Assembly: GCA_021785495.1 (NCBI GenBank) | Contig: JAJYFB010000001.1 | Location: forward strand, 9,891 to 73,890 | DNA: 64,000 bases | Reading direction: 5' to 3' | Origin: Acidobacteriota bacterium | Lineage (GTDB): Bacteria > Acidobacteriota > Terriglobia > Terriglobales > Acidobacteriaceae | Shown: one piece after another, positions 13,388 through 53,176 of the stretch | How the letters are laid out: each line of letters starts with the position of its first letter | Position numbering within the stretch: position 1 is the stretch's first letter | Made by a program: the position numbers and the translations under genes | The notes under the pieces: generated by a model | The model's input: only the letters and a program-made list of their open reading frames with translations | Told to the model about the DNA's origin: nothing | Databases searched by the model: none

Positions 13388-13801
13388 ATGGAACTGGCGC
13401 TGAATCTCGGCTGGGCGGCGCTTGCCGTGTGGATGGTCTGCGTGTGGCTGCGCAGGACGCCGTCGCGTCGGCAGGACCGCCGTGCGCAGATGGTGGCGCT
13501 GGCGATGGCCATTCTGATTCTGCTGCCGGCCATCTCAATGACCGACGATCTGGCGGCGGCGCAGTGTCCGGCCGTGCTCGATCTCAGTGTCCGCCGTTCG
13601 CACGATCAGGACGCGCACAATCCCCACTGCATCTTTCCCGCGGCGGCCTCGCTGCCGTCCGTGAAGTTTTCCTGTCTTCCCTTGCAAACGACAGGCAAGG
13701 CCGCACTGGTTGCGCGCATCCTGGTTGCGGTCGAAAATCCCGCGCTCATCGCAATCGACAACCGCCCTCCGCCGGCAGCCAGCTTTTCCTTCGCTGCGTA
13801 A
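13388..13801 (+). CDS. Small membrane protein with a His/Cys/Asp-rich loop, upstream of the metal-efflux operon (possible CzcI-like role)
   Basis: Two hydrophobic helices: 'LGWAALAVWMVCVWL' and 'MVALAMAILILLPAISM'. They are followed by 'CPAVLDLSVRRSHDQDAHNPHC'. I recognise no family, so coding status rests on position and hydrophobicity. Confidence 0.45.
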   Translation: MELALNLGWAALAVWMVCVWLRRTPSRRQDRRAQMVALAMAILILLPAISMTDDLAAAQCPAVLDLSVRRSHDQDAHNPHCIFPAAASLPSVKFSCLPLQTTGKAALVARILVAVENPALIAIDNRPPPAASFSFAA

Positions 13802-13866
13802 TTCTTTTTCATCGCTTGTTCTTCCCGATCGGCGTCGTGACCACCACGGCGCAAGAAGGTTGTTCC

Positions 13867-16283: not shown

Positions 16284-19200
16284 TTCGCCGGCTTGTTGAT
16301 TTCGCGCTGCAAAATCGGCTGCTGGTTCTCAGCCTCGGCATGTTGCTCTTCGCCTGGGGCATGATTTCGTTTCACCGGCTGCCGGTCGAGGCCTATCCCG
16401 ACGTGGCCAATAACTACGTGGATATCATCGCGCAGTGGCCGGGCATCAGCGCCGAGCAGATCGAGCAGCAGGTGACGATTCCCATCGAGACCACGATGAA
16501 CGGCATTCCGGGCATCGCGCACATCCGTTCCTGGTCGATCTTCGGGCTCTCGACGGTCGAGATCGTCTTCGGCGAGGAGACGACAAACTTCGAAAACCGC
16601 GAGCGCGTGCTTGAACGGCTTTCGCAGGTCACCCTGCCCAACGGCGTCGTGCCGCAGATGGGCACCGACTGGAGCCCCGTCGGCCAGATTTACTTCTACA
16701 CGCTGCGCAGCTCGAATCCCGCCGAGGATGTGATGAACTTGAAGACTCTCGAAGACTATGTGGTCTCGAAGAATCTCAAGTCGGTTCCGGGCGTGGTCGA
16801 CATCAATCCCTTCGGCGGGCCGACGCGCGAGTATCAAGTGCGTCTCGATCCCGACAAACTCGTCGAGTATGGACTGAGTCTTGCGCAGGTGGAGCAGCAA
16901 CTGGCCAACAACAACGCCAACGGCGGCGGCAGCTTCATCGAGGAGGGCCAGCAGCAGGTCAACGTGCGCGAGGTCGGTCTGGCGCGCACGGCCGAGGAGA
17001 TCGCCAACACGGTCGTAGCCGCCAGGAACGGCACGCCGATTCGCATTCGCGATCTGGGCGTGGTCGAGCAGGGGCCGATGATCCGCCTGGGCCAGTTCGG
17101 CGACACCGAGCGCGACAAGGATGGCCGCCTGATCGACAATGACGACGTTGTCTCGGGCATTGTCGCTCTGCAAAAAGGCGCCAACGCGCAGCCCACGCTC
17201 GACGGGGTTCACGCCATGGTCCGGCAGTTGAACGAGAAAATCCTGCCCAGGGGCGTGACCGTTCATCCCTTCATCGACCGCAGCGACCTGCTCCACTTCA
17301 CCACGCACACGGTGCTGCACAACCTCACCGAGGGCATGATCCTGGTCGCCCTCATCCTGTTTTTGTTTCTGGGCAACGTGCGCGGCGCGACGATTGTCGT
17401 TCTGACGATTCCCTTTTCGCTGCTCTTCGCCGCCACCTGTCTCGACCTGCGGCATATTCCCGCCAATCTTCTCTCGCTGGGCGCGCTCGATTTCGGCATG
17501 GTGGTGGACGGCGCGGTGGTGATGGTCGAAAACATCGTGCGCCATCTGTCGAAGGCTGATCCTGCTCGCACGGCCGAGCAGAAAATTCGCGATGCCGCCC
17601 ACGAGGTGCAACGGCCCGTCTTCTACGCCATCGCCATCATCATCACCGCCTATCTGCCGATCTTCACGCTGCAAGCCGTCGAAGGCCGGCTCTTCCGGCC
17701 CATGGCCTGGACCGTCGCTTTCGCGTTGCTGGGCGCGCTGGTTTTTTCCATTCTCCTGGCGCCGGTTCTGGCCAGCCTGCTGCTGAGCAAGGGAGCGAGC
17801 GAATGGCGCAATCCGGCGATGGAATTTGTCCGCGAGCACTATCGCAACGGCGTAACCTGGGCGATTCATCATCGCCGCATCGTGCTGAGCGGTGGGGTTG
17901 CGGCGTTTTGCCTGGCGGTTTTTCTCGCCTCCAGCGGCGTCATCGGTTCGGAGTTCCTGCCCCATCTCGATGAAGGCGCGCTCTGGGTGCGCGGCACGCT
18001 CGAACAAAGCGTCGGGCCGGACGATAGTGTGCGTATGGCCAATCAGGCGCGTCTGCTGCTCTGCTCGTTTCCGGAAACCACCGAGTGCACCAGCCAGGCC
18101 GGACGCCCTGACGATGGCACCGACCACACGGGATTCTTCAATACGGAGTATTTCGTCGGTCTGAAGCCGAAAGGCCAATGGCGTCCCGTCTTCGGCGGTG
18201 ACAAGGACAACCTCATCGCCTCGATGCAGGCCGCGCTCGACAAGAAATTTCCCGGCGTCATCTGGGGATTCTCGCAGCCCATCGAAGACAACATGGAAGA
18301 GGCGGTCAGCGGCGTCAAAGGCGAGCTGGCCACAAAAGTGTACGGCAGCGATTTGCACACGCTCGAAGATCTGGCCAACCAGATCGAGACGGTGATGAGC
18401 CACGTGCGAGGCATTACGGACCTCGGCGTTCTGCAAGTGACCGGCCAGCCTGATCTGGATGTGACGGTGGACCGCGCCAAGGCCGCGCGCTGGGGCATCA
18501 ACGTGGCCGATGTGCAGGACGCGGTGCAAACGGCCGTCGGCGGCACGGCGCTCACGCAGGTGCTGCGCGGCGAGGAGTCGTACAACCTCACCCTGCGCTA
18601 TCTGCCGCGCTACCGCAACACGCGCGAGGCCATCGAAAACATTCGCCTGCTGGCGCCCTCCGGCGAGCGCGTCTCGCTGGCGCAACTCTGCGACATTCGC
18701 GAGGCCGACGAGGGTTCGGAGATTTATCGCGAAAACAACCAGCGTTACGTGGCCATCAAGTACAGCGTGCGCAATCGCGCGCTGGGCGACGCGGTGCGTG
18801 AGGCGATTCAAAAGGTCGATGCGCAGGTGAAGCTGCCGCGCGGCTATCGTCTCGGCTGGGAGGGCGAGTACCAAAGCGAGCTCCGCGCCGAGGCGCGCAT
18901 GGCCATCATCGTGCCCCTCACGGTGCTATTCATCTTCGTCATACTTTATGCCATGTACAAGTCGCTCAAGTGGGCGCTTTTGATTCTGGCCACGGTGGCC
19001 ATGGCCAGCCTGGGCGGGCTCCTGGTGCTGCTGATGACGCACACGAACTTCAGCGTCTCGTCGGAGGTTGGATTCCTGGCGCTCTTCGGCGTCTCCGTGC
19101 AAACCGGCGTGATCATGCTCGAGTACATCAACCAGCTTCGCGTGCGCGGCGACTCCATTGAAACGGCCGCCGTGGAGGGCGCGATTCTGCGCCTGCGTCC

Positions 19201-19441
19201 CATCGTGATGACGATGCTCGTGGCCACGCTCGGCTTGCTTCCGGCCGCTCTATCGCACGGCATCGGCTCGGATTCGCAGCGGCCCTTCGCCATCGTCATC
19301 GTTGGCGGCCTGGTGACGAATCTGCTGATGAGCGTTTTCCTTTTGCCCACGCTCTACGTCTGGGTGGCGCGCGAGCACGACATTCTTCCGGCTGCCGACC
19401 AGACAGAGGAAGCAAAGGATTCTGGCCGGGATCTGCCGTAA
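16280..19441 (+). CDS. czcA: Heavy-metal efflux RND permease (CusA/CzcA family)
   Basis: 'MIRRLVDFALQNRLLVLSLGMLLFAWGMISFHRLPVEAYPDVANNYVDIIAQWPGISAEQIEQQVTIPIE', about 1050 aa with 12 TM helices. ATG at 16280 overlaps the adaptor stop. The longer track ORF (16121) is an upstream extension. Confidence 0.93.
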   Translation: MIRRLVDFALQNRLLVLSLGMLLFAWGMISFHRLPVEAYPDVANNYVDIIAQWPGISAEQIEQQVTIPIETTMNGIPGIAHIRSWSIFGLSTVEIVFGEETTNFENRERVLERLSQVTLPNGVVPQMGTDWSPVGQIYFYTLRSSNPAEDVMNLKTLEDYVVSKNLKSVPGVVDINPFGGPTREYQVRLDPDKLVEYGLSLAQVEQQLANNNANGGGSFIEEGQQQVNVREVGLARTAEEIANTVVAARNGTPIRIRDLGVVEQGPMIRLGQFGDTERDKDGRLIDNDDVVSGIVALQKGANAQPTLDGVHAMVRQLNEKILPRGVTVHPFIDRSDLLHFTTHTVLHNLTEGMILVALILFLFLGNVRGATIVVLTIPFSLLFAATCLDLRHIPANLLSLGALDFGMVVDGAVVMVENIVRHLSKADPARTAEQKIRDAAHEVQRPVFYAIAIIITAYLPIFTLQAVEGRLFRPMAWTVAFALLGALVFSILLAPVLASLLLSKGASEWRNPAMEFVREHYRNGVTWAIHHRRIVLSGGVAAFCLAVFLASSGVIGSEFLPHLDEGALWVRGTLEQSVGPDDSVRMANQARLLLCSFPETTECTSQAGRPDDGTDHTGFFNTEYFVGLKPKGQWRPVFGGDKDNLIASMQAALDKKFPGVIWGFSQPIEDNMEEAVSGVKGELATKVYGSDLHTLEDLANQIETVMSHVRGITDLGVLQVTGQPDLDVTVDRAKAARWGINVADVQDAVQTAVGGTALTQVLRGEESYNLTLRYLPRYRNTREAIENIRLLAPSGERVSLAQLCDIREADEGSEIYRENNQRYVAIKYSVRNRALGDAVREAIQKVDAQVKLPRGYRLGWEGEYQSELRAEARMAIIVPLTVLFIFVILYAMYKSLKWALLILATVAMASLGGLLVLLMTHTNFSVSSEVGFLALFGVSVQTGVIMLEYINQLRVRGDSIETAAVEGAILRLRPIVMTMLVATLGLLPAALSHGIGSDSQRPFAIVIVGGLVTNLLMSVFLLPTLYVWVAREHDILPAADQTEEAKDSGRDLP

Positions 19442-30742: not shown

Positions 30743-30868
30743 GCCTGCTCCTGGTTTGAAAATGCTTGTGTTCGCGAGCCTCGGCTGCGCATGGAGCCGC
30801 TCCCGTGGCGGCGAACGCCTCATTTGCTGGAATCTTCGCAGCGAGGGGAGTTTTTCATCGAGCGCCGG

Positions 30869-32392
30869 CTATCGAACGCTGGCCGCGGCCTGCAGGCTCT
30901 CGATGCGCGTCAGCTCTTCGGGGTCGCGCAGCCGCGCCCCTGCGTTGTAGCTGCAAAACGGAATCAGCTCGCCGTCGGTGGAGACGTACTGAATGATGCA
31001 GCGATGCAGCCGGCGCAGGTTGTAGCTGTGCGCGTCCATAAAGTGCATTCCGGCGACGAAGATACCGTTGAAGCCGCGCCGGTCCCAGCCCTCGGAGCGG
31101 CCGTCGGTCTTGTCCTCCCAGGCGTCGAGGCTGCGGATCAGCCGCTCGAAGGTGAGTCCGGGCGGAGTTTTCGACCGGTCGAGGCAGCTTGCGAAGCGGC
31201 CGAACTGGCGGATCTTCGAGATCTGCCGCCCGATCAATCCTTGCTCAGCCACGGGCTTTACCTGCGCCATTCCGCGCAGAAAACCGTCCAGGTCGAAAAA
31301 ATTGCTCAGGCAGAAGGGCCGGTTGTCGTCGTCGATATAAAAAAACGTTCCGATGGAGCAGTGCGCGTCGCAGAGCGGCGGGTGAACGCGCTCGTCGCGC
31401 ACCCGCTCGATGGCCCGGCTCAGCAGCGAGAGCGCGTTGAGCGGGAACCAATCGTCGGGAAAGCGCGTCAGCCCGGTCTGCTGGCCGAACTCGCGCGCCA
31501 TGGCGGCCAGGTTGAAGGGCTCGGCGTTCTGCTCATCGACGCCGATGCGGCCGACGTGCGCCGCCGGCTGGATGCTGATTCCGGTGACAAAGCGGCTGTG
31601 CTCCAGCGCGAAGCGGAAGATGGGCCCCAGTTGATCGACGTTGACGCCGCCGATCACGGTGGGCACCAGCACCAGCCGCATGTTCGTCTGCTCGACGGCG
31701 CGCACGGCGGCGATTTTCTTGTCGAGCAGCCGCTGTCCGCGCATCTTCAAATAGACTTCGTCGCTCAGGCCGTCGAATTGCAGGTAGAGCGTATGCAGAC
31801 CGGCCTCTTCGCAGAGCTTGGCGTAGCCGGGGTCGGCAAACTTGCTGCCGTTGGTCGCCACCTGAAGGTGCGTAAAGCCCATCTCGCGCGTCATGCGGAG
31901 AATGGCCGGAAACTCGGGGTGAAGGGTGGGCTCGCCGCCGGAAAATTGCACGCTGCGGCAGGGAACGGGCCGGTCCAGCAGCGCCTGAAGCATCTTGCGT
32001 AGGGTCGCAAGATCGAGCGCGTAATGGCTGCCTTCGCCCGTCGCTTCGGCAAAGCAGACCGGGCAGCGAAAGTTGCAGCGGTTGGTGATGTCGATGACCG
32101 CCAGGCAGGGCTCGTTGGCGCTCTTCATCGCCTGCGCGCGGCAGCCGTTCCCACCCGGCATCGCGGCGGTCTCGGCGCCGGGAAAGACGAGCCGGTTCCA
32201 CGCGTCGAGCTTGCGATAGAGGGCGGAGTCGGAGAAGATCAGATCCGTGGTTGGCTCGTGGCAGCCGCATTCGCAGCGCTGATAGACCTTGCCATTGTGA
32301 TCGAAGATCGCCGCCGCGCACGGCGCTCCGCAGCGCGGGCACAAGGACGCGACCCGATCGATGTGCATATCTCCCGCTGCGGATTCGGACAT
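30869..32392 (-). CDS. Radical SAM enzyme with an N-terminal Cys-rich ribbon (COG1964-type, possibly Tes/GDGT-MAS-like)
   Basis: 'CPRCGAPCAAAIFDHNGKVYQRCECGCH' is followed by the rSAM motif 'ITNRCNFRCPVCFA','FSGGEPTLHPEF','ATNG'. The protein is 507 aa. RBS GAAGAGG precedes ATG 32392. Radical SAM membership is secure. The Tes-like subfamily call is from memory only. Confidence 0.85.
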   Translation of the reverse strand: MSESAAGDMHIDRVASLCPRCGAPCAAAIFDHNGKVYQRCECGCHEPTTDLIFSDSALYRKLDAWNRLVFPGAETAAMPGGNGCRAQAMKSANEPCLAVIDITNRCNFRCPVCFAEATGEGSHYALDLATLRKMLQALLDRPVPCRSVQFSGGEPTLHPEFPAILRMTREMGFTHLQVATNGSKFADPGYAKLCEEAGLHTLYLQFDGLSDEVYLKMRGQRLLDKKIAAVRAVEQTNMRLVLVPTVIGGVNVDQLGPIFRFALEHSRFVTGISIQPAAHVGRIGVDEQNAEPFNLAAMAREFGQQTGLTRFPDDWFPLNALSLLSRAIERVRDERVHPPLCDAHCSIGTFFYIDDDNRPFCLSNFFDLDGFLRGMAQVKPVAEQGLIGRQISKIRQFGRFASCLDRSKTPPGLTFERLIRSLDAWEDKTDGRSEGWDRRGFNGIFVAGMHFMDAHSYNLRRLHRCIIQYVSTDGELIPFCSYNAGARLRDPEELTRIESLQAAASVR

Positions 32393-32693
32393 AACCTCTT
32401 CAACTCAGTTCCAAAGTTTGTCGAAAGTATACACCTTGCGCCGTTCTGTATTTTGCGTCGCCGCCGGGAAAGCAGGGCGATCGCATGGATCGCTTTTTGT
32501 TTGCATCGCGGGATCGCCGCGCCCCGCCGGGGCGCGAACGGTTCTTCTCCGCGTTGTCCCAGGGTTCCGCTGCGCTCTACCCTGGGCTATTTTCGCCTGT
32601 CCCTACGGAAGGCAACCGGGGGACAGATCAAACGCGGAGTTCATTGCGTGCGTTGGCTTCGTTCCTGCGTTTGCCCTGGCCGGGAAAGACTTT

Positions 32694-35252
32694 CTACGCG
32701 CGCGTGATTCCGGCGGGCGGGCATCTTTTCCTTGCGCCTTCCTGAAGGTGCAGAAGGGCGGGAATCAGCCAGAAGCCTCCGGCCAGCGTCAGCGCCACGC
32801 CGATCGAGGTGACCAGTCCCAGCTCGGCGAGCGGTTGGAAGGACGCGGTCATCAGCGCGCCGAAACCGACGATGGTGGTGAGGTTGGACTGGATCAGCGC
32901 GGCCCCGGAGGCTTTGGCCACGTCGAGAATGCGGTTTCGCTCGCTTTCAAGAGAACGGCGCACTAAGTGAATCCCGTTGTCGATGCCGATGCCGACGATG
33001 AGCGGCAGCGCGGTGACGGCCATGATGCTGAAGCGGTGACCGGCCAGGATCAGCAGTCCAAAGGTGACCACAAGGGCAAAAATGATTGGTAGAAGAACGA
33101 GCAAAGCCGTGGAAAAACGGCGAAAGGTCAGCAGCAAAATCAAAAAAATGGCTGCTGCGGTCCATGCGAGCGCGCGGCGGCTGTCGTGCGCGACGCGCGA
33201 TTGCAGATCCCGGTCGATCTTGTTGAACGAGAAATCGACGAAGGGACCGTACTGCGCGCGCCACTGCCTGAGCACAGAGACGGGAATCGCCTCGGTCGCA
33301 TCGGGACGGGCAGGGTAGTAGGCGACGGCGGCGACGTAGCCGCCATCCGGCGCACGACGAATGCTGTTGGCCATCAGATCGGCGGGCAGATACGCACCGG
33401 AATCTTCGAGCGTGAGCGGCTGCGCGCCCTGGCGCAAGGCGTGAAGACGCGCAAAGTAACCGGCGTACGGCGCAAGGCGAAATCCGTTTTCCGCGAGAGC
33501 ACCCTTGAGCGCGCGCGCCGTGGCCTCCAGATCAACGCCTTTCAGCAAGGCTGCGCGCCGCCGCTGGGTCGCGATGGAAGGCAGCAACTGCGTCGGCGAA
33601 AAGACCGACTGGACCACGCCCTCTTGCCGGTAGTTCTCAAGCGCCGCGGTGAGCTGCTCGGCGCGCCGCAAAACCTCCTGTTCGTTGCCGGCGATCAGCA
33701 GCACATCCGGGCTGCCCGCGATGCCAAACTTCGATGCCAGCAGGTTCTGCGCGGCGAGGGCGGGCGAGTTTACGCCGCTCTCCACGACGAAATTTCCGCC
33801 CCAGCGGATCGAGGGCAGCAGGCCGAGCGAGAGCAGAAACAAGGCTGCGGCGGCGATCGCGACAGCGCGGGCATGGCGGCCGACAAAATCCACCGTCGCG
33901 CGCGCCACGCCGGGCAGAAAACGGAAGGTGATCGCACGGGGCGCGAGCGGCTGGATGTATCGCCCCCACAGTTGCATCAGCGCGGGCACGGTCAGCAGCG
34001 TATGCAGGCCGGTCATGAAGATGCCCACGGTGAGAATGAAGCCGAACTCGGCGAGCGCCTTGAAGCCGGAGCAGGCCAGCGCGGCCGTCGAAGTGGCCGC
34101 GGTCAGGATGCAGAGCACGATGCTCGTTCCCGTGGTCTCGAAGGTGCGCAGCATGGCCTCGTTGAAGCTGCCGCCCTCCGCCCACTCCTGCGGCGAGCGG
34201 TTGAAAAAATGCACCACCTGATCGTCGCCGAGACCCGCCAGAATGGCGATGAACGAGAGGCTGATGAGATTGACTTCGCCGGGATAGTAGCTGGCGATTC
34301 CGGTCGTCCACAGAATGCCCAGGCCCGTGGGCAGAAGCGACAGGAGCACGATCTGAACGTTGGGATAGACGGCGAGGCACAAGAGCAGGCTGCCAACGAT
34401 CGAGACCATCGAGACGCGGCGAATGTTCTTCTCGATGAAGAGATGGTCTTCCTCGGAGTAGGCGTAGGCTCCGGCGGCAACGGCGCGGATGCCGGCCGCG
34501 CGCATCTCCGCGCCAGAGGTGGCGCTGGCGATGTGCTGCCGTGTCCATTGCATGACCTGCGTGGCGTCGCGATAGTCGACGGCGGGCTGGCGCGGCTCGG
34601 CCAGAATCAGCAGCGCCGTGTGGTCCTTGCTGAAGAAGCGGTTGCCTGAGCCCCAGTTGAAATCGAAGCTGCCGAACTGGCCGAGGCCCACGGCGTGGCC
34701 GGCCGTCGCCGAGGCCACGCCCAGCGGGTCGGCCACAAAGTCGCCCGCGCCCAGCGTCGAAAAGGGCGTGACCAGTTCGGTCGCGGCGGCGCGCACGTGG
34801 GCGGGAATCTGCCGGGGATCGAGCCGGTCGCGCAGCGCCGCGAGGTTCGCGGCGTCCGCAAAGGCCGGGAAGTTCCAGGAAAAAAGCCGGACCATGCCGA
34901 GCAATTCCGCTTCCGAAAGCCCCGATCGCTCCGACCGGAAGAGCCCGCTCGCGGTCATCTCCGCGGTCAATCGATCGGCCGTCTGCTCCATCGGCCCGCT
35001 GCAATCCGCGCAGCCTTTGGGCGCCAGCACCAGCACGTAAAGCTGATTGCCGTAGCCCAGTTCGTTGCCGATCCGGCTCACCGCGCGCCACTGCGGATCG
35101 TTCGTTCCGAACATTCCCGTCAGATCGGTTCCCGTGCGCAATGTGTGGATGTGCGCGTAGAGAACAAGCGTCATGATCGCCACCGCGGACGCAACCCATC
35201 CCGGCCGACGGATCACCAGATGCGCAAGCAGCCGCGTGAAACGGGCCATCAT
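32694..35252 (-). CDS. MMPL/HpnN-like RND-superfamily lipid exporter
   Basis: 852 aa in two 6-TM bundles with large loops. Motifs 'FIAILAGLGDDQVVHFFNR' and 'LPLIVGIGIDNGIHLVRR'. Its start overlaps the upstream stop (ATGA at 35249-35252). Confidence 0.85.
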   Translation of the reverse strand: MMARFTRLLAHLVIRRPGWVASAVAIMTLVLYAHIHTLRTGTDLTGMFGTNDPQWRAVSRIGNELGYGNQLYVLVLAPKGCADCSGPMEQTADRLTAEMTASGLFRSERSGLSEAELLGMVRLFSWNFPAFADAANLAALRDRLDPRQIPAHVRAAATELVTPFSTLGAGDFVADPLGVASATAGHAVGLGQFGSFDFNWGSGNRFFSKDHTALLILAEPRQPAVDYRDATQVMQWTRQHIASATSGAEMRAAGIRAVAAGAYAYSEEDHLFIEKNIRRVSMVSIVGSLLLCLAVYPNVQIVLLSLLPTGLGILWTTGIASYYPGEVNLISLSFIAILAGLGDDQVVHFFNRSPQEWAEGGSFNEAMLRTFETTGTSIVLCILTAATSTAALACSGFKALAEFGFILTVGIFMTGLHTLLTVPALMQLWGRYIQPLAPRAITFRFLPGVARATVDFVGRHARAVAIAAAALFLLSLGLLPSIRWGGNFVVESGVNSPALAAQNLLASKFGIAGSPDVLLIAGNEQEVLRRAEQLTAALENYRQEGVVQSVFSPTQLLPSIATQRRRAALLKGVDLEATARALKGALAENGFRLAPYAGYFARLHALRQGAQPLTLEDSGAYLPADLMANSIRRAPDGGYVAAVAYYPARPDATEAIPVSVLRQWRAQYGPFVDFSFNKIDRDLQSRVAHDSRRALAWTAAAIFLILLLTFRRFSTALLVLLPIIFALVVTFGLLILAGHRFSIMAVTALPLIVGIGIDNGIHLVRRSLESERNRILDVAKASGAALIQSNLTTIVGFGALMTASFQPLAELGLVTSIGVALTLAGGFWLIPALLHLQEGARKRCPPAGITRA

Positions 35253-36373
35253 GGCGCACGCTCCAGCGGCGGCCGCTCGGCGACAAAGAGAATATGCGCC
35301 AGCGGGAGAAGGTTGCGAAATCGCCGCGTGCGCACGCGCATGCCGGCCGCTTCAAGCGCCTCGCGGTAGGCCGCGGACGCAAGCACCAGCGGGCGCGACG
35401 GCGCGTTGCCGATGCGGAAGATCAGCCGGTCGAAGAGCATGGTCATGGCCGAGCGCAGGCCGCGCTCGCGATCGTGCACGCGAAAGACGAATTTTCCGCC
35501 CGGCTCCAAAGCAGCGCAGCAGCGGCCGATAAGCGCCAACTGCTCTTCGGCGCTCAGGTACTGCAAGACATCGAGAATCAGGATCAGGCCGGCCGGAGGC
35601 AGCGGGTACCGCCGCACGTCGCCCACCTCGACTTTGGCGTCGCAGCCGGCCAGCGCCTTTTGCGCCACGCCGATGCGTTTGGCATCCAGATCGCAGCCGG
35701 CCAACGGTCGGCCTTCCTGGCCGAAGGCGGCAAAGCACAGCGCCATTCCGTAGCCGCAGCCGAGATCGACCACCGCGCCCGCGCCCAGTCCTTCGGCGTC
35801 GAGGAGCGCAAAAATCCGGTCCAGCCGCATCTTCCAGCGCACAAAGCCGCGGTCGAAGTTCGGCGCGGAGGCAAAGACGCCATTCACAAAGCGGATGCGC
35901 GCGCGCAGATTGCGGCGGCAGGGCCGCAGCCACGCGACGGCGATGGCCGCGATCGCTCCGCCCGCCACTCCCGCAGCCGCGCCCAGAGGCACGCTGCCGA
36001 TCGCCCACAGCAGCAGGTCGCCGCGCGCTGCGGCCATCGTGAAACCCGAAAGGCGCAACGGCAGAAAGGCGCCCGTGCGCAGCACGCTGCCGCACTCGAT
36101 CGAACCGAGGACAAGAAAGGGCTGCAAAAACGGATTATTGATGAACGTGGCGGCGAAGGTGAGCGGTTTGTTCAGCCCCAGCAGAATCGCCAGACCGATG
36201 GCGGCCACCGATTGCAAGCCGTAGATCGGCACCACGCCGATGAAGAGGCCGAGGCCGACGGCCAGACCGGCCGGAAGCGGCTCCAGTCCCTCCGTGCAGA
36301 GCGTCGCCGCCAATTTTTTGATGGTCCCGTTGATGGCTTTCATCCTCGTCCGATCCGCCCTGCGCGCCGCCAT
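35249..36373 (-). CDS. DUF2062-like membrane domain fused to a class I SAM-dependent methyltransferase
   Basis: The N-terminus 'GLAVGLGLFIGVVPIYGLQSVAAIGLAILLGLNKPLTFAATFINNP' is DUF2062-like. The C-terminus carries 'VVDLGCGYGMAL' (SAM motif I) and 'ILILDVLQYL'. Confidence 0.75.
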   Translation of the reverse strand: MAARRADRTRMKAINGTIKKLAATLCTEGLEPLPAGLAVGLGLFIGVVPIYGLQSVAAIGLAILLGLNKPLTFAATFINNPFLQPFLVLGSIECGSVLRTGAFLPLRLSGFTMAAARGDLLLWAIGSVPLGAAAGVAGGAIAAIAVAWLRPCRRNLRARIRFVNGVFASAPNFDRGFVRWKMRLDRIFALLDAEGLGAGAVVDLGCGYGMALCFAAFGQEGRPLAGCDLDAKRIGVAQKALAGCDAKVEVGDVRRYPLPPAGLILILDVLQYLSAEEQLALIGRCCAALEPGGKFVFRVHDRERGLRSAMTMLFDRLIFRIGNAPSRPLVLASAAYREALEAAGMRVRTRRFRNLLPLAHILFVAERPPLERAP

Positions 36374-36379
36374 CCCGCG

Positions 36380-36796
36380 TTAACCCCAGGCGACCGACAG
36401 CTCGCCGCTGGCCACCTTTTCTCCGTTCACGGTGATCGTTCCCTCAATGTATGCCATCGATGCCGCCTGCGTCAGCTTTCTGGTCTCGATGCGCAGACGC
36501 TCGCCCGGCGTCACCGGCCGCAGAAACTTGAAGCGGTTGACGGCGGCCAGCAAGGCCCGTTCCGGCGGACCACCCTCGCCCAGCATCACGCCAGCCGTCT
36601 GCGCCACAGCCTCGATCATCAGCACGCCGGGCAGAACGGGACGGCCAGGAAAGTGCCCGGCAAAGATGGGGTTCGCCGCATCGGCCGTGAGCGAGGCCAC
36701 GCAACGCTCGCCAGCCTCCAGTTCTTCCACGCGATCGATCCACAGGAACGGCGGTCGGTGCGGAATGCGCTTCTCGATCTCTTCGCGCTCCATCAT
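36380..36796 (-). CDS. FabZ/FabA-like hot-dog fold 3-hydroxyacyl dehydratase
   Basis: 'IPHRPPFLWIDRVEELEAGERCVA...FAGHFPGRPVLPGVLMIEAVAQTAG'. Confidence 0.8.
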   Translation of the reverse strand: MMEREEIEKRIPHRPPFLWIDRVEELEAGERCVASLTADAANPIFAGHFPGRPVLPGVLMIEAVAQTAGVMLGEGGPPERALLAAVNRFKFLRPVTPGERLRIETRKLTQAASMAYIEGTITVNGEKVASGELSVAWG

Positions 36797-37432: not shown

Positions 37433-38107
37433 TCACGCTCCCAGAAAGCGAAAGGCCAGCGAGCAGAAGCAAATCCGCACCGTATCGCGCACGGGCTTCA
37501 TCTTCGAGCGCGGCTGCCGGCCGTCGTAAATTGTCTGCACGGGCGCATGGGCAATCGTCGCCCCGCTTCGCGCCATCTTGATCAAGGCTTCCATCTCGAC
37601 CTCGTAACGCCTGCTGCGCAGTTCGATCCGGCGGAGCTGATCCAGCCGATAGACGCGGAAGCCGCTCTGGCTGTCGCCAATCCGGCAGCCCACCAGCGCC
37701 GAGGCCCAGCGGCTGCCCACCGTGTTCGAGTAATACCGCGCTGGCGGCATCCTTGCGCGGTCGAACGTGCGCGCGCCAATGACCAGGCCGGCTCCGGTCT
37801 CCTGCGCCACGCCGAGCAGTCCGGCAATATCTTCCGGCCGGTGCTGGCCATCGCCATCGAGCGTCACGGCGTGCGTGAACCCGGCGTCGATCGCGTAGCG
37901 CATTCCCAGGCGCAACGCCGCGCCCTTGCCGCTGTTCTTTTCGCTGCGCAGACAGAATGCGCCGGCCGCGCCGGCCAACTCGGCCGTGCCGTCCGTCGAG
38001 CCGTCGTCGATCACGACCACTGCGTCCACATGCGCGCGCGCGCCGCGCACCACGGCGGCGATGTGGACAGCCTCGTTATAGGCCGGAATCAAGGCGCAGC
38101 TCTTCAT
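37433..38107 (-). CDS. Family 2 glycosyltransferase (Dpm1/polyprenol-phosphate sugar transferase-like)
   Basis: ATG at 38107 gives 'MKSCALIPAYNEAVHIAAVV..VVVIDDGSTDGT'. 'LDGDGQHRPEDI' follows. Confidence 0.85.
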   Translation of the reverse strand: MKSCALIPAYNEAVHIAAVVRGARAHVDAVVVIDDGSTDGTAELAGAAGAFCLRSEKNSGKGAALRLGMRYAIDAGFTHAVTLDGDGQHRPEDIAGLLGVAQETGAGLVIGARTFDRARMPPARYYSNTVGSRWASALVGCRIGDSQSGFRVYRLDQLRRIELRSRRYEVEMEALIKMARSGATIAHAPVQTIYDGRQPRSKMKPVRDTVRICFCSLAFRFLGA

Positions 38108-38883
38108 GATCGCTCGGCTTCTTCGCGCGCGCCCGCCAGCGCGAAGGAAAAGCCGCGCGCGCGCAGGCTGTCGATCACGCCGGGCAGCGCCCGCAGCATG
38201 GGCTGAGCCCCCTCCGATCGCCGGTCGTGCAGCAGGATGATGTCGCCGCCCTGCGCCCGGTTCACGATCCGCTTCTCCAGTTCTTCGGCATTGCGAATGC
38301 GCGTGTCCAGGCTGCGCAGCCGCCACGAGACGAACTCCAGTCCCGCCCGCTTCAGCGCGGGCCGCAAAAACGGATGGCGCAGTCCCACCGGAGAGCGGAA
38401 GTAGCGCGGCCGCTGGCCGCAGGCGCGCCGGATGGCCTCCGTGCCGCGTTCAATCTCCCGGCGCAGCCGCCACGGCGGCAAAAAACAGAACAGCGGACGG
38501 TGCGACCAGGTGTGATTGCCGATCAGATGGCCTTCCTCCCAGGCGCGGCGCACAATCTCTGGATGCGCCTCGGCGCGGCGGCCGACGACGAAGAACGTCG
38601 CCCGCACACCTTTTTCGCGCAACAGATCCAGCAGCCGCGGCGTATCCGCAGGGTCGGGCCCGTCGTCGAAGGTCAACGCCACCGCGCGCGTGTTGTCCAG
38701 GCGCGAACGGTTCTCCACCAGCCAGCCATTCGCCGGGTGGAAGAGCAGAAAAAGCATGGTTCCCGTGCCCAGCCCGTACAGAACGGCAAAAAGAACCAGG
38801 CGCGGCCAGGAAAACGGAAAAAGCACCGCCAGCGCACAGTGGGTCGCCGCAAAAAGACCGAGAAATAGATACCCCCGCGCCAT
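38104..38883 (-). CDS. Polysaccharide deacetylase (CE4/NodB family) with two N-terminal TM helices
   Basis: ATG at 38883 (MARGYLFLGLFAATH). Motifs 'ALTFDDGPDPADTPRLLDLLREKGVRATFFVVG','GNHTWSH','ILLHD'. The 544-aa track ORF is an artefactual extension across a MITE. Confidence 0.85.
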   Translation of the reverse strand: MARGYLFLGLFAATHCALAVLFPFSWPRLVLFAVLYGLGTGTMLFLLFHPANGWLVENRSRLDNTRAVALTFDDGPDPADTPRLLDLLREKGVRATFFVVGRRAEAHPEIVRRAWEEGHLIGNHTWSHRPLFCFLPPWRLRREIERGTEAIRRACGQRPRYFRSPVGLRHPFLRPALKRAGLEFVSWRLRSLDTRIRNAEELEKRIVNRAQGGDIILLHDRRSEGAQPMLRALPGVIDSLRARGFSFALAGAREEAERS

Positions 38884-39191: not shown

Positions 39192-39646
39192 CCGTTGCTA
39201 CCGCATTGCCGGCATGAAACGTCCATAAAAGCACCGCAGACAGGCAGGATGGAAGGCACATGCAGCATTCACCGATCCGGACCGTACGAATTTCCGCACC
39301 ACGCCCCGTTCTGCTTCCAGCCCCTGGCGGCCGGAGGACAGGATCAAGGATTGCGGCCCGCCGGCGCGATCCAGCCGGTCCGGGAACGGCCGCGGTCGTC
39401 CCCGCCTCCGCCACGGGCTTCCTGCCAGACGCAAGCCCGCCCTGATACACTTTTTCCTTGGAGTTACCTTGTGCGCTTCGCCTCTGCGGCTGCGCGCGGT
39501 TGTCCGCCGCGGCGGCATCCGGGGGTTCGTGCCGGTCCGCTTCCAGCCTGCGGGCGCGGAACAGGATCAAAGTTGGCGATGGGCGCCTTTTTAACCAGTT
39601 TTTTGTGACCGCTCCGCAGTTCGACGGTACGGAGCGGGGAGGATTC

Positions 39647-42364
39647 ATGCGGCGGTTCTTGACGCTTGTTTGCTTGTTTGTCCTGGCTCTTCCGGCTGGG
39701 GTCTCCATCTCCGGATGCACGCGCAACCCGGCGGGCAATTACTGCAACGGCCTCGGCTACGGTCTGAAGGACACCGACGTCGATTACATCACCTTGCAGC
39801 CGCAGATCGGCGGCATCTCGCTGGCCTACGGGCAAATCGCGAGCGTACAGTCGCCCACTGCCTATACCTGCAAGGGCAACTCAACCGCCGCCCCGGGTGG
39901 AAAATTCAACTACGGCACCACAAACAATCAGTTGGTGGATATTTCGCCCACGGGAAGACTTTGCGCCGGCACCTGGAACCGCAACACCGGCGGCGGCATC
40001 GCCGACTACACCTACTGCTACGCACCCAGTCCGCTGCCAGCTACCGGGGGACTTCCCTACGCCATCGCCTATATCACGGCCACGACCGCCGCGGTAACCT
40101 CCAACCCTGTCCCCGTCTACGTCCACGCGCCGATCACCTCCATCAGCCTGGCCACGACGCCGCTCGATACCTCGTCCTCGCAATCCTGCTTCTCGCAGAA
40201 CCAGCAGGCGAGCCTGGATGCGTTGGCCTACTACGACAACAACGGTACGGAATCCCTGCTCTGTCAGCCGTCCTCGAACGCGCCGGTCACCGGCTTTTCC
40301 GTCAATAACAATGTTGTGACCCTGAACGCCGCCAACAACTTTGTGGCCGGCGAGATGGTCACCTTCTCCGGCTTGTCCGCCGCCACCTTTTTGAACGGGA
40401 AAACCTGGACCGTCCTCTCGAACGGCCTGAGCAACACGCAGTTCGAGGTGGCCGCCAATGCCGCCAATGCCAGCCAGACGGCCGACAACGGCGCCGCAGC
40501 CACCTCCAGCGCGCTGCCCACCTGCGGCAATTCCATCGGCACCCTCAGCTTCGCCAGCAGCAATTCCTCGATCGCCAACATCAACCCGGCCACGCTCACC
40601 GATCCGCTCTCCACCATCACCGCGCTGATGCCGGGAACCACGACCATCACCGCGACCATCTCCCAGTCCGCATCCTCGGCTGGCTACTTCTCCACCTGCC
40701 CGCCGGCCGCCATCAAGGTCGCGCTGGCCAATGGGTCCACCAGCGGCGTGATCACGCAGGGCGTGACGCAAAACCTGACCACGACCGTCACCGACACCCT
40801 GGGCAAGCCCATCACCGGACTGGATCTCACCTACGAGTCCACCAATCCCATCGAGGTGGCTGCCACGGCCGGCGGAGCCATCACCACCGCCTATCCCGGC
40901 CTCGCCTCGGTCTATGCGGTCTGCGAACCGCCCGGCTGCAATCCCGCGCCCATCAATGTTTACGGATTGAACGGCACCGGCCTGTCGCTGGCTTCCAATC
41001 CCGTCGACATTACCGTCCCCGGCACGACCAGCGATTTTGTCTACTTCGCGGCGCCCGGCCTGTCGCGCTACTTCAGCAGCATGCAGTTGCTTACGGGCAA
41101 TCCCGGCGGAACCACCCTTCTGCCCTACGTCCCCAACTCCCTGGTCATGGACCAGCAGGGCGCCAACCTCTATTTCGGTTCGCTTCGCGAGTTGATGATT
41201 TACTCAACCTCGGCCGACGCCATCACACGGCAAGACGCATCCGTGCCCGGCGTTGTGCTGGCCGCCTCGCCGAACGCCAGCCAGTTGCTCATCAACGACC
41301 AGGTGCGCGGCCTGTTCTACATCTACAACACCGCGGGCAGCATCGCCACCACCTACAGCGGCATGGGCTCGTCGGCGGCATGGACGCCCGATTCGCAGAC
41401 CCTCTACATTGCCGACAGCTCCTCGCTGGGCGGAAACCACACCAACACGCTTTACGTCTATAACGCCAACGTCGGCTGGAGCACCTACACACTGACGAAT
41501 CCAACCAGCGCTTCCGTCGGGCGTAACCTGGCCATTACCGTTCCGGGCGTGGGCGCCTACCTCACGGGCAATCCGACCGTGGACCATACCTGGTGTCCAT
41601 CGGGCAATGTCGGCAACAACGGCAGCATCCTCTTCTATCCCCAATCGGCCTCCGACGTGCTGAACCTCCAGACCGATGTGATTGGGGCTACGCTGGACGG
41701 CAAGCACATGCTCGGCGCAGCGCTCAGCGGCTCGAACATCACGCTCAACGACATCGCCGTGGATATTTCCGCCGCGCCGCTCTGCCCGGTGGATACCGCG
41801 GTTTCGCCGCAAACCATGTCGCCGCTCTCGACCAACCCCTCGATCAATGGAACGGTCACGCTCGGCACGCAGACCGGCGCGAAAACCTTCGCCGCCGCCC
41901 AGGTCAATCAGGTTGTCACCGGTACGGCTCCGGCCACGGCAACCGTGACTACGGCCGCCCCCATTGCTTTTGTCACTTACAACGGCGATACGGCGGGCAA
42001 CCAGCTTCCCTACTATCTGCCGCAATCCTCCGGGCTGGGGCAGGTTGGCTACGTCACCTTTGCCGACGCCAACTCGACCACTGCGCCGCCTACCGCGCCT
42101 CTGACCGGCGCGTTTTCGCCCGATCACTCGCTGTTTTTCGTCTCGACTGCGGGCGACAACGATTTTCACTTCATCAGCATTCCCGACAACGTGAGCACAA
42201 CGGCGCCGCCCACCGACTCGCAGCAGTACAGCCCCAATCTGCCCGCCTGCACTCCGGTCTCGGCGGGAGGCAACGACGCCGACTGCCTCTATCCCACCGC
42301 GCCGACCGCAACCACCTACGTCCCCGCCACGGTGATCGTCGTCAAACCCCGCTCGATCACGTAA
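39647..42364 (+). CDS. Large (905 aa) Thr/Ser/Asn/Gly-rich surface lipoprotein, unknown function
   Basis: GGGGAGGA precedes ATG 39647. 'MRRFLTLVCLFVLALPAGVSISGC' carries a lipobox. The rest is compositionally beta-rich, with Ig-like/propeller-like stretches. I recognise no family. Confidence 0.7.
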   Translation: MRRFLTLVCLFVLALPAGVSISGCTRNPAGNYCNGLGYGLKDTDVDYITLQPQIGGISLAYGQIASVQSPTAYTCKGNSTAAPGGKFNYGTTNNQLVDISPTGRLCAGTWNRNTGGGIADYTYCYAPSPLPATGGLPYAIAYITATTAAVTSNPVPVYVHAPITSISLATTPLDTSSSQSCFSQNQQASLDALAYYDNNGTESLLCQPSSNAPVTGFSVNNNVVTLNAANNFVAGEMVTFSGLSAATFLNGKTWTVLSNGLSNTQFEVAANAANASQTADNGAAATSSALPTCGNSIGTLSFASSNSSIANINPATLTDPLSTITALMPGTTTITATISQSASSAGYFSTCPPAAIKVALANGSTSGVITQGVTQNLTTTVTDTLGKPITGLDLTYESTNPIEVAATAGGAITTAYPGLASVYAVCEPPGCNPAPINVYGLNGTGLSLASNPVDITVPGTTSDFVYFAAPGLSRYFSSMQLLTGNPGGTTLLPYVPNSLVMDQQGANLYFGSLRELMIYSTSADAITRQDASVPGVVLAASPNASQLLINDQVRGLFYIYNTAGSIATTYSGMGSSAAWTPDSQTLYIADSSSLGGNHTNTLYVYNANVGWSTYTLTNPTSASVGRNLAITVPGVGAYLTGNPTVDHTWCPSGNVGNNGSILFYPQSASDVLNLQTDVIGATLDGKHMLGAALSGSNITLNDIAVDISAAPLCPVDTAVSPQTMSPLSTNPSINGTVTLGTQTGAKTFAAAQVNQVVTGTAPATATVTTAAPIAFVTYNGDTAGNQLPYYLPQSSGLGQVGYVTFADANSTTAPPTAPLTGAFSPDHSLFFVSTAGDNDFHFISIPDNVSTTAPPTDSQQYSPNLPACTPVSAGGNDADCLYPTAPTATTYVPATVIVVKPRSIT

Positions 42365-51985: not shown

Positions 51986-52135
51986 TGCGCGTCTTGCGTG
52001 GTTTTCCCGCAGCCTCTCTGGCCGCGCCCTGACGCTTCGCGCCTTACGGCACAAGTTTGTCGAGGCGCTGACCGGGCACGCTTCTTGCTTGGCCGATTGC
52101 AGGCGGGTTTGGCTCTGGAAGGGAGTTCGACGAGG

Positions 52136-53176
<1,041 letters not shown>

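Follow-up and report, generated by a model that had tools for sequence, protein, structure and literature searches.

The window, by which we mean the whole 64,000-nucleotide stretch of acidobacterial DNA analyzed here, encodes a 507-amino-acid protein that, as judged from its sequence and predicted structure, belongs over its full length to the Tes/GDGT-MAS radical SAM family. Within this family it falls into a divergent acidobacterial branch, clade A, which by sequence comparison lacks the N-terminal auxiliary cluster ([Fe4S4]N) and is located in a specialized lipid gene cluster. On balance, we regard the protein as a functional lipid-modifying enzyme that serves this cluster, and its likeliest function is the radical modification, probably C–C coupling, of the tails of a specialized exported lipid. 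Because the branch is divergent and confined to uncultured organisms, has lost [Fe4S4]N, and lies in a lipid-export cluster, we see in it a plausible lipid-coupling enzyme, but probably not the one that makes the membrane-spanning lipids of Acidobacteria in general.

brGDGTs rank among the proxies most often used for temperature and pH on land, and in Acidobacteria the alkyl-chain coupling enzyme and the methyl- and ring-adding enzymes await experimental identification. The leading candidates in the literature are bacterial Tes homologues, which have been treated largely as one group and whose function is held there as a hypothesis (PMC11868695; PMC13459092). The acidobacterial homologues were proposed as brGDGT makers by Zeng et al. 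2022 (PMC8941075), and the proposal was taken up by Halamka et al. 2022 (PMC10087280); the idea of an acidobacterial Tes-homologue synthase is already published and not new. Sahonero-Canavesi et al. 2022 found Tes homologues in only 3 of 14 Acidobacteria that produce iso-diabolic acid and favored a different route (PMC13159169). Experimental support for a bacterial tail-coupling enzyme exists only for Mss (PMC13159169; PMC13459092), described from Thermotoga and Thermoanaerobacter by the same authors. Like the enzyme proposed here, of which it would be a functional analogue, Mss is a radical SAM enzyme, and it joins two fatty acyl tails. It differs in that its authors describe it as only remotely related to Tes, in that its hosts are anaerobes, and in that the acidobacterial genomes they examined yielded no Mss (PMC13159169).

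The open reading frame and the motifs quoted in the initial annotation were confirmed, and the gene lies on the minus strand (Table 1). The N-terminal ribbon reads C18-P-R-C21-G-A-P-C25 and then C40-E-C42-G-C44-H45, with a C25–C40 spacing of 14 residues instead of the 13 first given, and the stretch IFSDSALYRK occupies residues 52–61. Pfam places Radical_SAM at residues 102–261 (E = 2.9e-22) and the ribbon domain Zn_ribbon_HMPTM at residues 11–53 (28 bits; cut-off 27). The Tes/GDGT-MAS layout, which the initial annotation had proposed, was borne out by sequence and structure comparison. In a phmmer search, residues 13–488 aligned with positions 24–498 of the chain in Protein Data Bank entry 7TOL (E = 6.8e-82), and the identity to GDGT-MAS/Tes is ~30%. 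The AlphaFold model gave TM-scores of 0.83–0.84 with 7TOM/7TOL in Foldseek, the C-terminal domain included, and the second-best fold was MoaA with a TM-score of 0.37. The top NCBIfam model is Tes (NF045702), and no unrelated radical SAM subfamily ranked above it; the score of 346.4 bits is ~100 bits under the equivalog cut-off of 450 bits. Purifying selection acts on the gene: against five orthologues, dN/dS is 0.10–0.13.

Three of the metal sites of GDGT-MAS have counterparts in the protein. The rubredoxin-type motif C9-X2-C12...C33-X2-H36 of GDGT-MAS (PMC9433317) is matched by C18/C21/C42/H45, which are invariant across 86 clade A members, and the CX3CX2C motif follows. In the C-terminal domain, C345/M449/C465/Y469/C480 correspond in the alignment to C338/Met439/C455/Tyr459/C470 of GDGT-MAS, where the roles of Met439 and Tyr459 have been described (PMC9433317). 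Equivalents of all five residues are kept in 13 of 13 clade A members and in ~101 of the 105 other family representatives, a conservation that points to the three cysteines C345/C465/C480 as the probable ligands of the C-terminal cluster. At the N-terminal auxiliary site, by contrast, the ligand set C73/C77/C80/H83 of GDGT-MAS, present in ~95 of the 104 other family representatives (~90%), was kept in none of the 13 sampled clade A members. The corresponding columns of the MAFFT alignment hold G/R/A/S in the 507-residue protein, and the sole pairing at these ligands in the HMMER alignment is C84 with C73; the AlphaFold pLDDT over residues 71–90 is ~51–54. The auxiliary-cluster cysteines to which the initial annotation had pointed are thus kept at the C-terminal site, but absent at [Fe4S4]N. 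Clade A has also cysteines of its own, with C194 and C361 invariant and C145 and C403 at 90% or more. Since the [Fe4S4]N ligands are lost and the score falls below the Tes cut-off, the chemistry has possibly diverged. Compared with archaeal GDGT-MAS/Tes (MJ0619, 7TOL/7TOM, and NF045702), the protein shares the full-length architecture and fold at ~500 residues, the rubredoxin-type site, CX3CX2C, the C-terminal cluster cysteines, the labile Met439, and Tyr459. It differs in the extra conserved cysteines, in its bacterial host with ester or fatty-acid-type lipids, and in the position of its gene, which does not stand alone but is part of a cluster for biosynthesis and export.

Table 1. Features of the clade A gene and its cluster in the window, in order of position.
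Feature	Position	Strand	Basis
FabG-type ketoreductase (KR), 246 aa	30002..30742 (or to 30823)	-	Pfam adh_short_C2 3.5e-56; public gene call
Tes/GDGT-MAS-like radical SAM protein, clade A, 507 aa	30869..32392	-	ORF, Pfam, NCBIfam, PDB, AlphaFold
C-terminal auxiliary-cluster domain (predicted): C345, M449, C465, Y469, C480	30953..31360	-	Alignment conservation
Radical SAM motif CNFRCPVC, C106-X3-C110-X2-C113	32054..32077	-	Sequence; aligned to GDGT-MAS C98/C102/C105
Degenerate [Fe4S4]N region, residues ~71-96	32105..32182	-	N-terminal auxiliary cluster site in GDGT-MAS; ligands lost here
Rubredoxin-type mononuclear iron site (predicted), C18, C21 ... C42, H45	32258..32341	-	Aligned to GDGT-MAS C9/C12/C33/H36
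MMPL/HpnN-like RND lipid exporter, 852 aa	32694..35252	-	Pfam MMPL 1.6e-29
DUF2062 membrane domain + class I SAM methyltransferase fusion	35249..36343	-	Pfam DUF2062 2.6e-15, Methyltransf_25 1.3e-09; syntenic
FabZ/FabA-fold dehydratase (ApeI/ApeP-like)	36380..36796	-	Pfam FabA 7.7e-24; NCBIfam FabZ 124 bits (cut-off 113)
LolA-like periplasmic lipid carrier candidate, 211 aa	36793..37428	-	Via homologue in locus L118; syntenic
GT2 glycosyltransferase (polyprenyl-phosphate sugar transferase-like)	37433..38107	-	Pfam Glycos_transf_2 6.5e-20
Polysaccharide deacetylase family protein, first gene of conserved block	38104..38883	-	Pfam Polysacc_deac_1 8.3e-36; syntenic

The gene is flanked directly upstream by the MMPL/HpnN-like transporter and directly downstream by the FabG-type short-chain reductase, all on the minus strand. 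These are the lipid exporter and the FabG-like reductase named in the initial annotation; that reading of the context as lipid genes stands, but the two are really part of an aryl-polyene/flexirubin-like cluster. The KR scored 245 bits with the NCBIfam FabG subfamily model (cut-off 222) and 222 bits with the flexirubin FlxB model, under its cut-off of 340, and its linkage with the Tes-like gene holds in all relatives covered. The exporter reached 188 bits with the HpnN-like model, which is under the cut-off of that model, and is syntenic in ~30 loci. Weak matches were also found for the dehydratase (ApeI-like and ApeP-like in Pfam) and for the GT2 protein (PpgS and AglJ in NCBIfam). The LolA-like assignment is built on sub-threshold matches: the 211-residue candidate has no direct match in Pfam or NCBIfam and is 49% identical to a 155-residue protein of locus L118, itself matching flexirubin LolA2 below the cut-off (1.7e-10). 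The lineage of the window has kept the genes for the deacetylase, GT2, LolA-like protein, dehydratase (DH), methyltransferase, MMPL exporter, Tes-like protein (TesL), and KR, and the seven that accompany the Tes-like gene are all intact. No ketosynthase (KS), ACP, acyltransferase, B12-radical SAM, or outer-membrane protein (OMP) gene was detected by tblastn anywhere in the 64-kb window, so that the substrate-supply half of the pathway in this organism is either elsewhere or missing. Among the scanned ORFs, no ether-lipid or other lipid genes were found elsewhere in the window, and the rest are housekeeping genes. A hopanoid cluster was considered and rejected, as the second radical SAM gene is AhbD-like (TIGR04053) and the amine-oxidase gene encodes a protoporphyrinogen oxidase. 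An Rfam search covering the entire window (gathering thresholds) returned no match, and hence the upstream gap of 300 bp holds no riboswitch or other known RNA.

Relatives of the window carry a fuller form of the same cluster. The block deacetylase–GT2–LolA-like–DH–DUF2062/methyltransferase–MMPL–TesL–[OMP]–KR is kept in ~22 of the first 45 loci, and in loci such as L118/L153, L046, L051, L054, and L019 it is extended by KS, CLF, KASIII, an A-domain ligase, carrier proteins, an LpxL-like acyltransferase, and three B12-radical SAM proteins. The KS/CLF pair and an ACP lie beside the orthologue in these loci and in L040, and the KS part is displaced in L002 and L009; locus L153 is on OY970385, a complete chromosome of a Bryobacterales MAG. 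The adenylation domain scored 340 bits with TIGR01733 (cut-off 317), and no enoyl reductase was present in the cluster loci inspected. The OMP-like protein has ~1000 residues and is DUF5686/LolA-like by a sub-threshold match. The genes for TesL, OMP, and KR are adjacent in all clade A loci covered except in the lineage of the window, where a clean junction replaces the OMP-like gene. Cluster content varies between loci, and the full form comprises ~20 genes. With few exceptions, clade A genes lie within a lipid cluster that is aryl-polyene/flexirubin-like in its gene content. The loci of the relatives share with the published aryl-polyene gene set and with flexirubin clusters the KS/CLF pair, ACPs, KR, FabA-fold dehydratases, and a starter-loading AMP-ligase or adenylation enzyme, as well as the LpxL-type acyltransferase, GT2, methyltransferase, LolA-like protein, and MMPL exporter; the window itself retains the LolA-like (by indirect assignment), MMPL, GT2, KR, and DH genes of this type. 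The clusters differ in that the flexirubin-specific NCBIfam models FlxB and LolA2 score under their cut-offs and that the copy in the window is devoid of the KS/ACP core. To our knowledge, no aryl-polyene or flexirubin cluster contains a Tes-like radical SAM protein, several B12-radical SAM proteins, or a ~1000-residue DUF5686/LolA-like OMP. Because the pathway is adenylation-primed and resembles the aryl-polyene/flexirubin type, the product of the cluster may be quite unlike a glycerolipid. The products of aryl-polyene and flexirubin pathways are pigments, not membrane-spanning lipids, which speaks against the C–C coupling view.

The substrate, C–C coupling chemistry, product, and product destination that we infer for the clade A enzyme can be outlined by analogy with GDGT-MAS. 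SAM would be reductively cleaved by the cluster of the CX3CX2C motif, and the resulting 5'-deoxyadenosyl radical would abstract a hydrogen atom from the unactivated carbon at the end of a lipid chain (alkyl or acyl), with the chain bound in a hydrophobic tunnel. The C-terminal [Fe4S4] cluster, for which the labile Met ligand is conserved, would then store the substrate radical on one of its sulfides. A second SAM molecule would generate a radical on a second chain, and formation of a C(sp3)–C(sp3) bond would give either a dimeric lipid, of the bola or membrane-spanning type, or a macrocycle. In the relatives, the substrate lipid may be made by the type II KS/CLF–KASIII–ACP–KR–DH machinery of the cluster itself and may be C-methylated or otherwise tailored by the B12-radical SAM enzymes. 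The LpxL-type acyltransferase would attach the lipid to an anchor, which is probably glycosylated in view of the GT2 and deacetylase genes, and the MMPL pump, the LolA-like carrier, and the ~1000-residue OMP-like protein would export the product toward the outer membrane.

The distribution of clade A was examined with a clade-specific degenerate DNA motif, which is present in 108 of 120 clade A proteins and in none of 149 other family representatives (sensitivity ~90%, so that occasional misses are possible). Among 185,579 species genomes, the scan yielded 51 true carriers, all of them metagenome-assembled genomes (MAGs) of uncultured Acidobacteriota from peat and soil. At this sensitivity, no cultured isolate among the same genomes carries clade A. 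The initial annotation had suggested checking whether orthologues go together with production of membrane-spanning lipids; the motif scan of these genomes found none in any cultured iso-diabolic-acid producer. An Anaerolineae locus (L149) was discarded as a chance motif match without a Tes-like gene.

Comparison of the acidobacterial sequences shows at least two paralogous kinds of Tes homologues, as far as sequence can tell. Clade A forms one cluster at 50% identity, the nearest representative outside it being 40% identical, and its monophyly received a neighbor-joining bootstrap of 100/100; two further members, P0017 and P0108, scored 348 and 314 bits with the Tes model, whereas sister acidobacterial clades score 516–605 bits and pass the 450 cut-off. 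Both kinds occur together in the MAGs SPRUCE 462 (L049 and L061) and SMAG_U3739 (L159 and L106). Since they coexist in at least two MAGs, clade A and the Koribacter–Solibacter–Bryobacter type are paralogues, not orthologues. The latter are from the same phylum and the same protein family, are the nearest sequences (38–41% identity), and share the hypothesis of alkyl-chain coupling, but they keep all four metal sites, and an example, L123, stands alone among housekeeping genes. The neighbor-joining tree put clade A sister to the Bryobacter/Koribacter-type clade with a bootstrap of just 18/100, and this placement was set aside.

Other functions were weighed against this evidence. We consider it quite unlikely that the protein is the core acidobacterial membrane-spanning lipid synthase, which would form iso-diabolic acid or brGDGT by joining two iso-C15 chains. 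Such a role, which is the published idea for acidobacterial Tes homologues (PMC8941075; PMC10087280), would suit an enzyme of the Tes family that keeps the catalytic C-terminal cluster and comes from Acidobacteriota of peat and bogs, the classic setting for brGDGTs, and the B12-radical SAM enzymes of the full cluster could add the brGDGT methyl groups or rings. However, the 51 carriers are all MAGs, yet cultured strains of subdivisions 1 and 3 make abundant iso-diabolic acid, and Tes homologues were found in just 3 of 14 producers (PMC13159169). The gene is part of a variable accessory cluster with outer-membrane export genes, not of the core phospholipid genes, and the paralogous clade, closer to archaeal Tes and alone among housekeeping genes, is a better candidate for coupling core lipids. 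What remains of the synthase proposed in the initial annotation is the Tes family and its catalytic sites; the protein fails the Tes cut-off (346 against 450), which the paralogous clade passes. A changed chemistry on the Tes fold, such as cyclization, an internal cross-link, desaturation, or C–S bond formation in place of tail-to-tail coupling, is somewhat unlikely. The loss of [Fe4S4]N, the gain of clade-specific cysteines, the score well under the equivalog cut-off, and the likeness of the cluster to adenylation-domain-primed aryl-polyene/flexirubin pathways agree with it, but the equivalents of Met439, Tyr459, and the C-terminal cluster cysteines, which are tied to radical storage in GDGT-MAS, are strictly kept, and the full-length fold is retained with its C-terminal domain.

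The gene could also be a relic of a decaying cluster without a current role in this genome, since the OMP-like gene that separates TesL from KR in every other clade A locus is absent and the window is without the KS/CLF, ACP, acyltransferase, and B12-radical SAM genes of its relatives. This we judge very improbable in view of the intact ORF with all catalytic ligands, the seven intact neighboring cluster genes, and a dN/dS of 0.11 against the nearest orthologues, no higher than the 0.14 for a pair of relatives whose clusters are fuller. The missing genes may be in another part of the genome, as with the displaced KS part in L002 and L009. A non-lipid enzyme of the COG1964 family, either a pterin C-methylase (HMPTM) or a TrsS-type protein, is suggested by the name of some JGI homologues ("7,8-dihydro-6-hydroxymethylpterin dimethyltransferase"), by the HMPTM name of the Pfam ribbon domain, and by 271 bits with the TrsS model (NF045646). 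This TrsS score is far under the cut-off of 490, with the best stretch covering residues 14–307 only, and the conserved context is wholly lipid biosynthesis and export, making such an assignment extremely improbable. The HMPTM name goes back to an earlier assignment of MJ0619. This protein was shown by Lloyd et al. to be GDGT-MAS (PMC9433317).

The split into two kinds, one stand-alone, archaeal-like, and with four metal sites and the other one cluster short and within a ~20-gene lipid cluster rich in B12-radical SAM genes, sharpens the choice of marker genes for metagenomic surveys. [quoted passage not shown] An unlikely but consequential extension is that the clade A cluster is the dedicated pathway by which uncultured peat and soil Acidobacteriota (Terracidiphilus-like, Bryobacterales, and Ca. 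Sulfotelmatobacter) produce branched membrane-spanning lipids of brGDGT or iso-diabolic-acid type, methylated, cyclized, or both, and deliver them to the outer membrane, with the Tes-like enzyme coupling the tails and the B12-radical SAM enzymes acting as C5/C6 methylases or ring formers. If this were true, the cluster would provide a genetic marker for the paleoclimate brGDGT proxies in their classic source environment. The significance for the organism of the window itself is smaller because its cluster is trimmed. The acidobacterial origin assumed in the initial annotation was correct. Identical copies of the gene are present in ENA ERZ27236914 and NCBI GCA_027342665.1, and the closest relatives of the protein (72–85% identity) are from Terracidiphilus/Acidobacteriaceae MAGs of bogs, fens, and soils.

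The open reading frame of the Tes-like radical SAM gene contains all the motifs quoted in the initial annotation: an N-terminal ribbon (C18-P-R-C21-G-A-P-C25, then C40-E-C42-G-C44-H45), IFSDSALYRK (residues 52–61), and the radical SAM motif C106-N-F-R-C110-P-V-C113. The spacing between C25 and C40 is 14 residues, not 13 as first counted. Pfam detected a Radical_SAM domain at residues 102–261 (E = 2.9e-22) and a Zn_ribbon_HMPTM ribbon at residues 11–53, the latter barely over the cut-off. In a PDB sequence search, residues 13–488 aligned full-length with tetraether lipid synthase (Tes, or GDGT-MAS) from Methanocaldococcus jannaschii (PDB ID: 7TOL; E = 6.8e-82), and the second-best match, MoaA (1.6e-07), covered the radical SAM core only. 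The AlphaFold2 model calculated from 86 clade sequences (mean pLDDT 81.3, pTM 0.85) gave TM scores of 0.83–0.84 against 7TOM and 7TOL and ≤0.37 against every other fold. The top NCBIfam model was also Tes (NF045702), but its 346 bits lie below the curated equivalog cut-off of 450; the proposed family is borne out, equivalence at that level is not. The TrsS model matched the N-terminal 300 residues only (271 bits, cut-off 490).

GDGT-MAS holds four cofactors: a rubredoxin-type iron (C9-X2-C12...C33-X2-H36), an N-terminal auxiliary [Fe4S4] cluster (ligands C73, C77, C80, and a histidine), the radical SAM cluster, and a C-terminal auxiliary [Fe4S4] cluster with the labile Met439, which the strictly conserved Tyr459 adjoins (PMC9433317). 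These sites were compared in an alignment of the window protein, 12 other members of its clade (clade A), 104 representatives of the wider family, and the M. jannaschii enzyme (MJ0619). Clade A keeps the rubredoxin site (C18/C21/C42/H45, window numbering) and the radical SAM cysteines. The elements tied in GDGT-MAS to radical storage and C–C coupling are strictly kept as well, with C345/C465/C480 corresponding to C338/C455/C470, Met449 to Met439, and Tyr469 to Tyr459. The C73/C77/C80/His set is missing in 13/13 clade A members and kept in ~95 of the 104 other representatives; of the auxiliary-cluster ligands that the initial annotation asked for, those of the C-terminal site, identified by their conservation, are present and those of the N-terminal site are lost. 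The loop of the lost cluster (residues 71–90) is the lowest-confidence internal part of the model. Clade A has also gained cysteines of its own: C194 and C361 occur in all of 86 clade sequences, and C145 and C403 in ≥90% of them. Their GDGT-MAS counterparts (T137, L186, P354, and L396 for C145, C194, C361, and C403) are not cysteines.

Clustering of a protein library at 50% identity left clade A with a single representative, the next best protein being only 40% identical, and the clade was monophyletic in 100/100 bootstrap replicates of a neighbor-joining tree. Bryobacter/Koribacter-type proteins (clade B) were its apparent sisters without support (18/100). All four metal sites are retained in these neighboring acidobacterial clades, whose scores against the Tes model are 516–605 bits, versus 348 and 314 bits for the clade A proteins P0017 and P0108. 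Both kinds occur together in at least two MAGs, SPRUCE 462 (L049 of clade A, L061 of clade B) and SMAG_U3739 (L159 of clade A, L106 of clade B), and clades A and B are therefore paralogues. The one clade B locus examined (L123) is a stand-alone gene amid housekeeping genes. The closest relatives of the window protein (72–85% identical) are from Terracidiphilus/Acidobacteriaceae MAGs of bogs, fens, palsas, and soils; two ENA assemblies and GCA_027342665.1 contain identical copies. The MAG bog_373 carries two complete syntenic clade A blocks, L005 (PLSB01000003.1) and L023 (PLSB01000110.1), whose proteins share 76% and 85% identity with that of the window; either the block is truly duplicated or the bin mixes two strains.

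The distribution was scanned with a degenerate DNA pattern of the marker peptide TGLTR.P.DW.PL (in 108/120 clade proteins and 0/149 other family representatives) over 185,579 species, each represented by one genome. Of 52 matching stretches, 51 were genuine members, all from Acidobacteriota MAGs (Terracidiphilus, Acidobacteriaceae, Terriglobia, Bryobacterales, and Ca. Sulfotelmatobacter); the Anaerolineae match was a chance one. No cultured isolate, cultured makers of iso-diabolic acid included, was among the matches.

Positions of the features in the window and in loci of related genomes (L numbers)
Feature	Position	Strand	Remark
Tes-like radical SAM gene, 507 aa	window 30869..32392	minus	ORF
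Junction of Tes-like gene and KR without OMP-like gene	window 30743-30868		cf. L023 11493-14717
Non-coding gap between MMPL and Tes-like genes	window 32393-32693		300 bp
968-aa protein gene	window 39458-42364	plus	
RND efflux operon	window 13429-19441	plus	complete
Cytochrome bd subunit II	window 51998-53176	plus	
TIGR04053 radical SAM/SPASM protein	window 53251-54540	minus	429 aa
HNH ORF	window 56892-57593	plus	233 aa
Protoporphyrinogen oxidase	window 59360-60856	minus	
B12-binding radical SAM genes in full clusters	L118 1143-4207, 16719-18143; L046 1514-2920, 17244-18716		
Amino-acid-adenylation-type enzyme, then 85-aa putative carrier protein, KAS III	L118 8140-9864		also L051, L002, L009

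The lipid exporter and reductase noted beside the gene were confirmed as an MMPL/HpnN-like transporter directly upstream and a FabG-type reductase (KR) directly downstream, on the same strand (Pfam, NCBIfam). In ~22 of the first 45 related loci the order is deacetylase, GT2, LolA-like protein, FabZ-like dehydratase, DUF2062-methyltransferase, MMPL, Tes-like enzyme, a ~1000-aa protein, and KR. Of these, the ~1000-aa protein begins with a signal-like segment, matches LolA_like/DUF5686 weakly, and is outer-membrane-protein (OMP)-like at its C-terminus. Wider or rearranged loci (L118/L153, L046, L051, L054, L019, and L040) add a ketosynthase pair (KS/CLF), KAS III, a stand-alone adenylation enzyme (TIGR01733, 340 bits; cut-off 317) with a small carrier protein, an ACP, a conserved 360-aa protein, an LpxL/PIM-type acyltransferase, an esterase, and up to three B12-binding radical SAM enzymes, one nearest the hopanoid C-3 methylase HpnR (206 bits, far below the cut-off of 650). 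The latter are candidate enzymes for methylating unactivated lipid carbons or forming rings on them, and the adenylation enzyme, carrier, and KAS III suggest that the lipid chain is started from an unusual unit, possibly one derived from an amino acid. We take the cluster to follow the logic of aryl-polyene/flexirubin clusters (type II synthase, acyltransferase, GT2, and LolA-like and MMPL export), from which it differs in its additional Tes-like and B12-radical SAM enzymes. A full-text literature search found no paper linking these elements.

The window block, which runs from the deacetylase to KR, is a trimmed version. The ~3.2-kb OMP-like gene, present between the Tes-like gene and KR in all other clade loci covered, is absent at a clean junction (blastn versus L023 and L001), and tblastn found no copy elsewhere in the 64-kb window. 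Nor does the window hold KS, CLF, ACP, acyltransferase, adenylation enzyme, or B12-radical SAM genes. Upstream of the Tes-like gene, the non-coding gap had no Rfam match and may be the site of an internal promoter; genes further upstream overlap or abut. Next to the first gene of the cluster, and divergent from it, lies the gene for a 968-aa protein rich in Thr, Ser, Ala, and Gly, which starts with a signal-like stretch and matches no Pfam family; relatives have an opposite-strand B12-radical SAM gene at that position.

We are almost certain that the window protein is a Tes-family radical SAM enzyme directed at lipids. The C-terminal cluster, Met439, and Tyr459 are strictly conserved, and the conserved neighborhood is all lipid synthesis, tailoring, and export; a non-lipid role is a minor possibility that we hardly expect. 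Here, we propose, with somewhat better than even confidence, that it modifies the tails of a specialized exported lipid, probably by tail-to-tail C–C coupling. Loss of the N-terminal cluster and the new clade-specific cysteines make changed chemistry on the Tes fold a serious rival to this coupling function, although we hold it to be clearly less probable. That the gene is a relic in the window's genome is a minor and very improbable alternative: its dN/dS of 0.10–0.13 versus five orthologues (0.14 between two relatives with fuller clusters) indicates purifying selection despite the trimmed cluster.

The initial annotation as a membrane-spanning lipid synthase matches a published open hypothesis, since Zeng et al. 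(2022), who counted 456 Tes homologues in bacteria and named Koribacter, Solibacter, and Edaphobacter aggregans among the Acidobacteria, proposed that such homologues act in brGDGT synthesis (PMC8941075), and Halamka et al. (2022) made the acidobacterial Tes idea the basis of a diether-condensation pathway for Solibacter usitatus (PMC10087280). Gene clusters pairing tes with gms were also reported in Acidobacteria (PMC11214058). For Thermotoga and Thermoanaerobacter, Sahonero-Canavesi et al. (2022) identified a different radical SAM enzyme, Mss, as the coupling enzyme; the Acidobacteria genomes that they examined yielded no Mss homologues, only 3 of 14 iso-diabolic-acid producers had Tes homologues, and the authors suggested an alternative acidobacterial pathway (PMC13159169). 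As of 2025–2026, no bacterial Tes homologue had been tested experimentally (PMC11868695; PMC13459092). For the window gene, the family fold, C-terminal cluster, and lipid context agree with the annotation, but a role as the general iso-diabolic-acid or brGDGT synthase of Acidobacteria is unlikely, because clade A is missing from all cultured producers in the marker scan, sits within an accessory cluster, and has a more archaeal-like paralogue. What is new here is a distinct Tes-like clade without the N-terminal cluster in uncultured peat Acidobacteriota and its tie to an aryl-polyene-like, B12-radical-SAM-rich lipid cluster, which would be of greater interest if shown to make brGDGT-type lipids.

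Among the ORFs scanned, the remainder of the window is housekeeping (ClpXP, a GH3 enzyme, the RND efflux operon, prepilin peptidase, TopA, Dus, a ClpB-type ATPase, cytochrome bd subunit II, an AhbD-like radical SAM enzyme, protoporphyrinogen oxidase, ProS, and a PBP). The AhbD/heme b synthase-like protein (TIGR04053, 486 bits; cut-off 395) lies near the cytochrome bd and protoporphyrinogen oxidase genes, a setting that looks heme-related, not lipid-related. At 429 aa, with residues 39–406 spanning the whole profile, it has no space for the extra domain described for the AhbD-related lipid cross-linker Gms. Nothing suggests that the RND operon (OEP outer-membrane factor, HlyD-type adaptor, and AcrB-type pump), 10 kb away, belongs to the lipid block. 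The HNH ORF matches the IscB/Cas9d nuclease models weakly in the HNH region (56 bits, cut-off 175) and is probably either a remnant or a stand-alone HNH endonuclease gene.
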